A stretch of 62,399 nt of DNA, counting the filler, from Hausera hauseri (Eukaryota): assembly GCA_046269625.1 (NCBI GenBank). It is 13 parts of 13 records of this genome, joined end to end, with 100 filler letters (N's around TTAATTAATTAA, not from the genome) between each part and the next. Parts side by side here need not be neighbours in the genome. Positions count along the whole stretch, not along the records: positions 1 to 3,989 come from JBJURY010836303.1; 12 more parts are not named here. One strand, written 5' to 3'. Positions 74 to 3,989 of this stretch are shown one piece after another. The notes beneath the pieces are model-generated. The model was not told where the DNA came from, did not search any database, and saw nothing but the letters and a program-made list of their open reading frames with translations. The position numbers and the translations under genes were made by a program. Every line of letters starts with the position of its first letter. The first letter of the stretch is position 1.

Positions 74-657
74 TTAAACCTTTATATTTTCCATAACTTG
101 TGCAAATAGCTCTAAGTAAACGACTTCTGATAATACTTGGCTTTCTATTTTTCCGGGTACAACTATTTCTGATCGTGGGGGTATTATAATATCTTTTGTC
201 AGTGAGACTTTTCCTCTGCATCGATCTTCATCAAACGTCTTCAATTGACTTGCTTTTACGTCTATGTAAAGGTTTTCCAATTGATTTAATACATCACATC
301 CAATTAGGATTTCATTTGTCAAATTATCGGCTATCCTTATCATGTGTTTCAAAGTTTGTTCACCGATTTTGATTTTTGCGTCAAGAACCATCTTAATTTC
401 TTCTTCTGTACCGAACGCTCCTACGTTTATTAATGTAGTAGTCGGTTTCGTAACTTCCTTTTCAAATCTTTGGGTACCTGACTTCTTCCCATTATTGTTG
501 TCGTAGATCCAGTATATAATAGAGCGATCATAGGGTATTCATTTACCTCTATTTCTATTTCTGGCCTTATAGGTGTTTTTTCTCCTTTTTTATCGTCAGT
601 TTTGCACGTCGATTTACGCTTATAATGTCTTACGTCTTCCTCAAAATTTTGTCGCAT
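74..657 (-). pseudogene. pro: Retropepsin aspartic protease and post-protease region (frameshifted)
   Basis: PEIEIEVNEYPMIALLYTGSTTTIM (degenerate LLDTGS), ILIGCDVL flap motif, and IIIPPRSEIVV as typically seen downstream of Gypsy proteases. Confidence 0.8.
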
Positions 658-666
658 TTGTTGTAC

Positions 667-2830
667 TTAGTGCATTGGGTATAATCCTGTATGTACCACA
701 TATCGGGGAGCTGAAGGGGTTACTACAAGTTGTTCGTTATATAGTTGCCCATGATATTCGTCTATGGGATCTAAATGAGGTAAATCCGTCACGAGCTTAT
801 GCCTATATTTAGGCTTTCGTGTCTTCAACACTATTTGTTTAATGCCAGGTATTTGTCCATATTTTGTCTTCGTCTTCACTTGATCATAGTTAGTGTTATC
901 GTTATCAGGTATGCTATACAGGGATTCTTTCATGTCTTTCTTTTGTAATATCTTTTTCTTCCACCGTGCATCACGGTTTGCTAGAAAACAGCTTGCTACG
1001 GCCGGTATTACAGCTATTAAGGTTTTCCAGGAGCATCTTACTGCTGCGTGTATCCCATATGCTTTGCCTAGGGCCGTAAATACTGTTCGAATGGCTCTAA
1101 TAATAAAATATATAGCTAGAAAACCGGAAGTTGCTTGTCTGAAATATAAGAGCTTTTCCCACATCTTTTCCATAACGTTTTTTGCTACCTTCTTTAGATA
1201 GTCCTTATTCATGAGGTTTTGCCATTGTGGTGATTCTTCACCGTCTCACATTACTCTCCTTGTTAGTTCGATTATTACTCGTTGTCTTTGTTGTGGAAAC
1301 AACAGCATCCGTCGATAGTTTTCTAAATTTTGTTGGGTATAAATTCCTCACTGTGATATTCCTGTTAACGGTTCGAACTTCTGATTCATTTGTAGGTTAA
1401 TCAAACTTAATGTCTCCGGTTTGGACACTGGTTTTCTTTTTGGCATTCTTATCCATTTATCGTTGTCAATCTTGAACATCGGTGACATATTAAAAATACA
1501 ACTGTATAGTGGAGTGGGCTTTACATTAATATCTAGCAACATCCTCGTCACTGGCATAACATATCGGGCCGCTGAGGGATAAACGACAGGTAGTTCCTTT
1601 GTACATTCGTCTGTTGGTCTAATTGATACTTCCACCTTCTTACATTCTATTGTTATCAGTACCTCGCCCATCACTCTTCCGATAACTTCGTCGCCGAAGG
1701 GTAGTACTGGCGCTACCATATCTGGATTTGTTATCATCAATGCCATTTTGTTACACATTATTTCATAGTTCCGCTTACATTCATTCATTCATTCATTATT
1801 TGTCTGTATAAACATCTAATTTCTTTCCTTACGTAATTAATTAGAAAATCGATCTTATTACCAAAGTATTGTGTTAACTTGATATCTTTCTTATCTATTT
1901 CAGTTTTCGCTTCGAGTATTTCTTTTCTCGATAAGAAAATACCTTTATAATTGGTTTTGGATATTACTTCGCCGCACTTATTTACCACGCCCGCAACTTT
2001 AAATCTCATTATTTCTTCTGGATTTTCTGAGTATACAATTGTAGCTACCTCTGTCATCTTGACTTTCTTAGTTCCTTCTTTATATGTTGCCGTCTCTTTT
2101 TCCGCTGTTTTTTCTACCGTTTTGTTAAACTCCCCTTCCTTTGACAGCGTCAAACGGAATTTACTTGCTAACGTCTTCCATGTCATTTTTGATTTTCCTG
2201 TATCACATTCGCCATTATTGTATTTACAGTCACTCATAGTAGTCATTACTTTTGTTTGCGAATCGAATAATCCTTCATATTCTTTCAGTTGTACCTGATA
2301 ATCTTCTATGGCTACTGTTCTAGGTGCGATTGTGCCTCCGATATCATAATCCACTCCTTTACAAGTGCCTTCCACTGTTTTATATATCCTTCCTGCCCTA
2401 ATAATCCTTGTATACTTTATTCTGTTCCTTACTGCTGGTAAGTGTGTGTTTTGTATAGTTATGATGCCAATCTTAAAAGCATCCTGACATTTTGCTCGTG
2501 ATATTATTATTTGCTCAAAAGGTGTTGTAGGCTCCATTATGTCCGAATTTCCCGAATAGTAAGCACAATTAAACAAAAAGAACGATCTTTTCACGTAACA
2601 TTCTCTAATCTTTGTTTTTATAAATTCGGATTCTTGGTACATCCAATATGTAAGACCACCGGTAGTTGTTAACTGTTCTGGGTCCGCTTCTTGGCATTTT
2701 TCTAAATCGACTAGAGAGTACTTTTGTCCTTCACTAAGTTTAGAACAATCATACGTCACTATGCCTACGGCTTTCGGCATTAACAGTGATGTTATTAGTA
2801 GAATTTGAAGTATCTCCATTATCGACATGC
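667..2830 (-). pseudogene. env: Envelope glycoprotein, chuvirus-glycoprotein-like (predicted class III fusogen), with signal/TM, C-terminal TM and cytoplasmic tail
   Basis: Hydrophobic ILQILLITSLLMPKAVG followed by IVTYDC..YSLVDLEKC, GTCKG, CKYNNGEC..W, GEVLITIECKKVEV..C.KELPV..PVTR, and TM FLAIYFII; split over ORFs 1785-3242, 1348-1788 and 667-1212. Confidence 0.8.
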
Positions 2831-2919
2831 CTGTTATTCCTGATCTCGAAGTAGTTGGTTGTGTCCCAAGTGGTCTATCCATTACTTTTTCTCGTTCTTC
2901 TGTCCTCGTCATATTAGTC

Positions 2920-3210
2920 GTCAAGCTGTTCAGCCAGCCACCTCTACATTGAGCCCAACTTCCCATCGTGTCTTCCAAAATCTTCACGGCTGTCCTGATA
3001 TTTCGCTCAATCTCCTCTAGATTTTGAGTCTGATGGTTAATTACTATTACCTTATATAGCAAATAATATATAGCCGTTTGAGCTTTTTCTCGTGAAATTC
3101 CTGTAGCAAACATCTTTCCCAGAATATTTAATTCGTGTAGCTCATTTATCCTTTCTTCCTCTAGATTCTCATAAAATTGTCTGCTTATTCGCAGCATTCT
3201 ATTCCATAAC
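2920..3210 (-). CDS. Bcl-2-like domain in frame with env (N-terminally deleted relative to the 58487-58870 copy)
   Basis: BH3-like MLRISRQF, BH1-like MFATGISREKAQTAIYYL and BH2-like MGSWAQCRGGW, in Bcl-2 order and spacing. Confidence 0.7.
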
Positions 3211-3989
3211 GTAGTGAACCGTAACTTCTTGTGTATCACCAATGGGATTTTCTACTTCTTGCTGTGCCATTTTTCATAGGATATTCACCACTGTTGCCTG
3301 TGCTCTTGCCTCTGGATGTATTTCAGTTATATTTCTCGGATTATAATTCTCACTTCTGCATCCAATTCTCAGCAATCTGTTGTAACCATATAGTGTCCTT
3401 TTACAATAACTTAATCCATAAGAACTGCCTTAGTAAAATGGTTCCAGCTGATATATCTTCTCTCGTAAGGTTTGTATGCCATCGGTTTCGTTCAATTTGA
3501 TAACCCTCATATCTTGATTTCCTTCTTTTATCGTTATCTAATAGCTTCATTTCTTCCTTTCTCTTCTTCTGCGGCTTTGGCTAGCACAGTCCTAGCTATC
3601 TCTCTCACAGGACTGACATCTTGGGCTAATAATACCAATTGATGTAAAATTTCATTCATTCTTTATATCGTTACATTACTGGTAATTATCTTCAATATCG
3701 TAATAGTTGTTTTGTCTATGTCAACTATATTATTGGGATTAATGGTCATTACAGCTTCTATAATGTCATCTTCTTCATCTAAGTATACACCGGGATTCTT
3801 TATTACTTGCTCCAATATCGTGGCATCGAAAATCGGTGAGTCTTCGGTTTCATCCTGACTAAGGGAAAATGTACTGAGATTACTCTTCTTTCTTCCCCTT
3901 TTCTTTTCCTTTCCTACTTTTCCCTTTCTGTCGATGTCTCTCTTAACTCGACATCCATGTCGATTATTTTTTTATTACTTTTCTTTCTT

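Follow-up and report, generated by a model that had tools for sequence, protein, structure and literature searches.

A decayed retroelement fragment, probably of the planarian Burro / GAG-ENV-POL group, in Hausera hauseri

Burro and GYPSM1 are giant gypsy-like long terminal repeat (LTR) retroelements of Dugesiidae planarians in which a Ubi2/SUMO-like domain (PF11976), a BCL2-like domain, a mononegavirus-like Env, a protease and a dUTPase-like spacer are encoded in frame, with the layout Gag-Ubl-BCL2-Env-PR-dUTPase-like-RT (Ubl, ubiquitin-like; PR, protease; RT, reverse transcriptase), and which occur in thousands of copies (Arkhipova and Yushenova, 2019, PMC6431247). They exceed 25 kb; the Burro1 open reading frame (ORF) of 4,873 amino acids (aa) also includes MATH, Smc, BIR and ankyrin parts, and Dugesia japonica contains decayed Burro fragments with stops and frameshifts (PMC6431247). 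Here we analyze contig 1 (1-3989, the whole contig) of a 62,399-nucleotide stretch of DNA from Hausera hauseri (assembly GCA_046269625.1), referred to as the window, in which 13 contigs are joined by N-TTAATTAATTAA-N spacers. Contig 1 is very probably a decayed piece from the interior of a Ty3/gypsy-type LTR retroelement that is present in high copy number and belongs to the planarian Burro / GAG-ENV-POL group, the intact members of which likely encode one polyprotein, Gag-Ubl-Bcl2-Env-protease-RT-RNase H-integrase.

GAG-ENV-POL gypsy elements with a gB-type env have been described in Nematoda, Bryozoa and Platyhelminthes and are not monophyletic; the examples from Platyhelminthes, Smed_errantivirus_1-6, have an HSV/gB-type env (HSV, herpes simplex virus) and are intact, with LTRs (Chary and Hayashi, PMC13524379). 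In nematode non-canonical endogenous retroviruses (ERVs), env precedes pol in a metavirus (Sacco et al., 2022, cited in PMC13524379), and the Anakin elements are BEL/Pao elements with a chuvirus glycoprotein (PMC7642597).

Contig 1 and its relatives share with the flatworm errantiviruses the GAG-ENV-POL order and a gB/chuvirus-type env before pol; they differ in that the contig 1 copy is decayed, and the terms "Bcl" and "polyprotein" are absent from the main text of PMC13524379. The position of env before pol is also common to the nematode ERVs, which belong to another host phylum. Those elements reportedly possess a continuous gag-env-pro-pol ORF, and to our knowledge they carry no Bcl-2 cargo. 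Anakin has the same env family as contig 1 (PF24664) in a BEL/Pao rather than a gypsy element, and its env is placed after pol, whereas in contig 1 and close relatives env lies upstream of the protease and not downstream of the integrase. The closest likeness is to Burro, whose published layout corresponds to that of contig 1 and its relatives domain by domain: an in-frame env between BCL2-like and protease domains is found in the contig 1 family and in the related protein P0004, and a Ubi2/SUMO-like domain upstream of BCL2 can be recognized in contig 1, weakly and by way of relatives. A preliminary description of this DNA had set such a layout against the usual position of env 3' of pol; a premise of novelty does not hold against the 2019 account of Burro (PMC6431247). 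Since both the layout and the accompanying Ubl and Bcl-2 modules were published there, contig 1 adds a family member and no new principle.

Domain order and decay of contig 1

On the minus strand contig 1 reads helical/ubiquitin-like linker, Bcl-2-like domain, hydrophobic segment, chuvirus-type (gB-like) env, anchor, tail, aspartic protease and protease-to-RT spacer. Pfam, profile and ORF evidence agree with the order linker, Bcl-2-like, env, aspartic protease given in the preliminary description. The features are as follows (iE, independent E-value).

3558-3782, minus: helical linker module, located after gag in relatives and interrupted by a stop (P0001/P0002 linker profile, iE 4e-5; 57-69% identity to the contig 13 linker)
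3307-3546, minus: ubiquitin/SUMO-like domain, decayed and frameshifted (linker profile, iE 2e-4)
2901-3224, minus: Bcl-2-like domain, C-terminal part with GGW motif, its start lying upstream in another frame (PF00452, E 0.004; alignment with PDB)
2754-2840, minus: internal hydrophobic segment, the predicted env signal peptide (Kyte-Doolittle maximum of 2.01 over 19 residues; immediately ahead of the env domain)
1126-2753, minus: env ectodomain, Monjiviricetes/chuvirus-type (gB-like) (PF24664, E 1e-23 and 2e-19)
1066-1125, minus: predicted env transmembrane anchor (hydropathy)
670-1065, minus: predicted cytosolic tail and linker to protease (anchor-to-protease-motif spacing)
667-669, minus: TAA stop private to this copy (other copies in runs X1 and X2)
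270-570, minus: retropepsin protease in two frames, with degenerate active-site codon 514-516 (RVP, E 0.001; P0154 match)
134-298, minus: start of the protease-to-RT spacer (spacer profile, iE 6e-5)

The minus-strand ORF 1785-3251 comprises the Bcl-2-like domain, the hydrophobic segment and the first half of the Monjiviricetes fusion glycoprotein, and ORFs 1348-1788 and 667-1245 (minus) carry on the same env model, the three together tiling positions 3-335, 336-474 and 520-643 of the 653 in PF24664. Further upstream, the homology noted previously between this linker and that of contig 13 was recovered (3707-3519 against 59494-59306, 57% identity); in contig 13 the linker comes after a gag capsid domain with 47% identity to residues 21-178 of P0001.

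A single TAA (667-669) separates the ORF of the tail (667-1245 from stop to stop) from that of the protease (430-666), the two lying in one frame, which agrees with the preliminary description; however, this TAA is one of many breaks, and the frame of the tail covers the first half of the protease only. Stops at 1348-1350 and 1246-1248 occur in the same frame as the TAA, the frame changes near 1787 in env and near 445-470 inside the protease, and the linker region 3200-3670 is broken at several places. The contig 1 copy cannot make the polyprotein. The second half of its protease matches residues 1477-1568 of P0154 (iE 1e-7), and the spacer at 298-134 is matched by a profile built from the protease-to-RT spacers of six RT-bearing relatives; no dUTPase Pfam match was obtained in window positions 77-538 and 3-227.

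Other copies and uninterrupted relatives

Copies of this family were retrieved from two public runs, X1 and X2 (Logan contigs). At an identity of at least 85%, 10,514 short contigs from X1 and 1,109 from X2 were placed on contig 1, covering all 30 bins, which indicates a high-copy family. The preliminary description had left open whether the stop at 667-669 is conserved or copy-specific, and these data settle the point: the TAA is missing in 2790.9 of 2832.7 contig depth in X1 (98.5%; 50 contigs) and in all of the 35.4 in X2 (five contigs). It is specific to the contig 1 copy, and readthrough is thus unnecessary. The other breaks behave similarly, the stop at 1246-1248 being missing in 2962.7 of 3152.2 depth in X1 (94%) and 109.6 of 109.6 in X2, and that at 1348-1350 in 10727.8 of 10743.2 (99.9%) and 267.7 of 267.7, respectively. 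The active-site codon 514-516 differs from that of contig 1 in 3625.7 of 3643.8 depth in X1 and 62.5 of 62.5 in X2. Of the 16 pieces listed, four extend across 667-669 by at least 31 bases in both directions.

Relatives were searched with HMMER, using the second half of env, the tail and the start of the protease as query; there were 576 matches at E 0.001, the best 150 of which were listed, and 19 of those listed, picked for rank or length, were scanned for domains. A word-index search with the tail and protease found no relative among 1,157 candidates, and an alignment-based locus search gave 252 pattern matches in viral contigs and 595 in metagenome contigs, none of them confirmed.

Single-ORF relatives cover each junction of the proposed order. 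In P0001 (1,130 aa, 44% identical), gag and a CCHC knuckle share a chain with weak matches to ubiquitin and Bcl-2 and with env's first half; P0004 combines Bcl2, env and protease in one chain; the 2,099 aa of P0002 include gag, env and two proteases, and P0002, P0006 and P0012 each encode gag-env-protease in a single ORF, gag signatures being found upstream of env in all three and in P0001. Env precedes RT in P0005, P0009, P0014, P0109 and the cluster members P0154 and P0156, and the gypsy-type pol order PR-RT-RH-IN (RH, RNase H; IN, integrase) is present in P0005, P0009, P0109, P0154 and P0156. Among the top 14 HMMER matches, 9 of the 11 proteins longer than 700 aa have the protease after env in the same chain, and the other two, P0010 and P0016, end in env. 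The order gag-Bcl2-env-pro-pol within one polyprotein, as inferred in the preliminary description, is consequently supported both by uninterrupted relatives and by copies without the stop. Taken with copies from two runs, more than a dozen uninterrupted relatives make the single-polyprotein Gag-Env-Pol layout a stable family trait.

The env of contig 1 is 44% identical to that of P0001 and 34% and 30% identical to P0154, and its hydrophobic segment 2840-2754 has a similar counterpart in P0001 and P0002. A FastTree phylogeny of the second half of env (44 rows, 255 columns, midpoint root) included contig 1 and the 43 of 137 proteins with enough coverage; those labelled as lacking a pol domain fall mostly outside the set scanned for domains. 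Contig 1 groups (0.986) with P0002, P0004, P0005, P0006, P0007, P0008, P0009, P0010, P0016, P0154, P0156 and two fragments, the opposite side being formed by P0113 and free-standing glycoproteins (support 0.998). The env of contig 1 contains five of five short motifs taken from six published Schmidtea env rows, and 66 of 69 free-standing glycoproteins contain none, a comparison biased by the choice of motifs with the published rows and contig 1 both in view and expressing likeness by eye and motifs rather than by alignment. Several true polyproteins (P0005, P0011, P0012, P0016, P0109) score 0-1 of five.

Other features of these relatives were observed. P0005 (HBK71150.1), an env-PR-RT-IN polyprotein, is filed under a Flavobacteriaceae metagenome-assembled genome and most likely represents animal DNA that was placed in a bacterial bin. 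Many relatives, P0156, P0006, P0009, P0002, P0007, P0008, P0012 and P0154 among them, have two to five protease active-site motifs per polyprotein, some C-terminal of the integrase, and the contig 1 copy shows one; tandem proteases could act as single-chain dimers on a membrane-tethered precursor. Long post-integrase extensions with at least two hydrophobic segments occur in P0005, P0009, P0109, P0154 and P0156, which suggests a putative second membrane protein within the same ORF.

The proposed polyprotein and its alternatives

A Gag-Env-Pol layout of this kind would imply a membrane-threaded polyprotein, like that of flaviviruses, in a retroelement. From hydropathy we infer that the chain threads through the membrane of the endoplasmic reticulum (ER). 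Translation of the one ORF would start in the cytosol; the hydrophobic segment after Bcl-2 would open ER translocation and then be cut by signal peptidase; and the env anchor (1125-1066) would stop transfer. The protease, RT and integrase would appear on the cytosolic side, still attached to the env tail, until the element's own protease released them, and Gag, Env and Pol would be made at about 1:1:1 without frameshift or splice. The distance from the anchor to the protease motif is 183 aa in the contig 1 copy and 107-359 aa in 13 uninterrupted relatives.

Several points weigh against reading contig 1 as part of such an element. Gag, RT, integrase and LTRs lie outside the 3,989-base contig 1, whose linked sequence ends at positions 1 and 3989, and no flanked locus was recovered; since the spacers join separate contigs, gag and pol found elsewhere in the window have no physical linkage to the element. 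Gag, Bcl-2, env, protease and RT occur together in no single protein found, and their order was stitched from overlapping proteins and the published Burro layout (PMC6431247). The Bcl-2 profile matches P0001, P0004, P0010 and, weakly, P0016, and has no match in P0002, P0006, P0154, P0011 and P0012, so the module is optional in the group. The Logan contigs are short unitigs, and none of them reaches from the anchor to the active site; it is also possible that X1 is the source sample itself. Finally, hydropathy is 1.66 for the anchor and 1.65 for a second stretch at 1035-979, so that in this copy the two score alike; were the second stretch to span the membrane, the protease would end up on the lumenal side. 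In the relatives one anchor predominates by hydropathy, the aligned anchor reaching 1.8-2.4.

The alternative that survives best, which we consider improbable, retains the gene order and has Env made separately from a spliced or internal-promoter RNA, with no ER threading and the in-frame fusion used only for Gag-Pol synthesis. Synthesis of Gag and Pol at 1:1 is unusual. Moreover, the env of gypsy elements normally comes from a separate ORF (PMC6431247). Under such a scheme, however, every Gag-Pol chain must still cross a signal-like segment and an anchor, and in most relatives with sequence upstream of env the signal-like segment is found at the equivalent position.

It is very unlikely that the contig is chimeric or that the protease derives from another element, either inserted into an ordinary gag-pol-env element or located behind it in tandem, even though the window is rich in pieces of several retroelements, the tail is poorly conserved and the distant match P0113 has the usual integrase-env order. 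Positions 1788-466, spanning tail and protease, are collinear as one block with the uninterrupted P0154 (854-1295) and P0007 (177-618); the junction is bridged by contigs from two runs; what lies upstream of env is Bcl-2 and Ubl, together with gag in relatives, rather than integrase; and P0113 falls outside the clade of contig 1. Neither a nested protease nor RT or integrase upstream of env, the cases that the preliminary description had named as contrary to its order, was seen among close relatives. A conserved, programmed readthrough stop fixing the Env:Pol ratio, for which the common frame on both sides of the TAA and the known readthrough at retroviral gag-pol junctions might speak, is to all intents ruled out by the X1 and X2 contigs without the stop (present in only ~1.5% of X1 depth), the 13 relatives uninterrupted from anchor to protease and the two further stops in the same frame of the contig 1 copy.

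Cargo modules and the rest of the window

Two further regions of the window encode related elements.

57503-59914, minus: sister copy in contig 13 with gag capsid, linker, Bcl-2-like domain and first half of env (69% nucleotide identity to 1944-3190)
43606-46719, plus: more distant relative in contig 10, a linker/Ubl module followed by env (Pfam and profile matches)

The Pfam match of the Bcl-2-like region of contig 1 to PF00452 is weaker than the curated cut-off, and that of the contig 13 copy has an E-value of 3e-4. With a six-row alignment of the region as query against PDB, Bcl-xL was first (E 2e-4). The fold was tested on a structure model of the contig 13 sister copy with a predicted local distance difference test (pLDDT) score of 75.6. 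VIA-align gave a best Z of 13.6, with a root-mean-square deviation of 2.5 over 125 residues; its top 30 rows were all Bcl-2-family or viral Bcl-2-like, and the first clearly unrelated row had Z 6.0. Foldseek agreed weakly: its listed rows were all of the Bcl-2 family, the best E was 2e-3, and no match reached 0.001. At the level of the model, a Bcl-2 helical bundle fold is thus confirmed for the sister copy. In the alignment the canonical BH1 motif NWGR is not retained, and BH3-binding or anti-apoptotic activity should therefore not be assumed. Pfam and profile scans gave no Bcl-2 match in the contig 10 relative.

The Ubl assignment of contig 1 (3546-3307) is weak and depends on relatives: its own stretch has no Pfam match, and the corresponding regions of P0002 and P0001 match PF11976 (E 0.017) and PF00240 (E 0.031), respectively. 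Both modules, Bcl-2 and Ubl, are likely to be accessory cargo with effects on cell death and protein turnover in the host.

In P0001, the closest gag-bearing relative, env is preceded by only ~790 aa, with a single CCHC knuckle, against the 4,873-aa ORF of Burro1; judged from such sequences the contig 1 family looks compact, size and extra domains being beyond the reach of a 4-kb contig. A tentative proposal, which we hold to be possible but doubtful, is that of a compact Burro-related lineage in which the env signal segment is used twice, taking Env into the ER and, after the cut, serving as C-terminal anchor of Gag-Ubl-Bcl-2. A tail-anchored, viral-style Bcl-2 might then sustain the survival of stem cells of the host during particle assembly on the same membrane, Bcl-2 being a swappable cargo restricted to some branches of the env tree. 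The reuse of this segment as a Bcl-2 anchor was not met in the literature searched, which is no claim of its absence from print.

Burro1 carries a BIR/RING inhibitor of apoptosis (IAP) that protects stem cells (PMC13465017). Contig 2 (plus strand; window 4091-4636, 5502-5684 and 6263-10004) encodes BIR (E 1e-8) and RING (E 1e-10) domains and, downstream of them, a gag-like region with 50-55% identity to P0016, followed by Ubl, Bcl-2-like and env, and represents a different family from contig 1. Its BIR/RING-gag arrangement resembles Burro1 B-IAP and, being Burro1-like, fits a planarian host, which is the most likely one on sequence similarity.

In contig 13, the gag capsid of 59222-59914 (minus) runs straight into the helical linker, without the CCHC knuckle or spacer, unlike P0001, and this copy is likely internally deleted. 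Contig 5 (19932-23570, plus) has a gag 33-34% identical to P0001/P0002 and, after it, a long coiled-coil ORF, which by eye resembles the start of contig 10 (42532-43245, plus), itself continuing to Ubl and env; both are probably members of a second, larger gag-env family. Pieces of gypsy-type RT, RNase H and integrase in contigs 3, 6 and 11 (11430-14340, minus; 26726-28588, plus; 51743-53266, minus) are 27-39% identical to the pol of relatives and were not assigned to the contig 1 family.

Weak Pfam matches to Spo0A_C, Lon_C and PDH_C were dismissed as chance. A low-complexity contig at 15095-19392 has extreme skew (AT skew ~ -0.8) and internal gaps, and its long ORFs are likely a composition artefact. 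Besides a weak SET match, a long ORF at 33503-37575 (plus) includes a protein kinase domain (E 1e-13), and a Polinton-like fragment of a protein-primed DNA polymerase B (PF03175, E 5e-8) lies at 38941-39780 (plus). In contig 12, translation of 55790-55960 (plus), within a purine-skewed decayed region, revealed by eye a RING-finger-like cysteine pattern.

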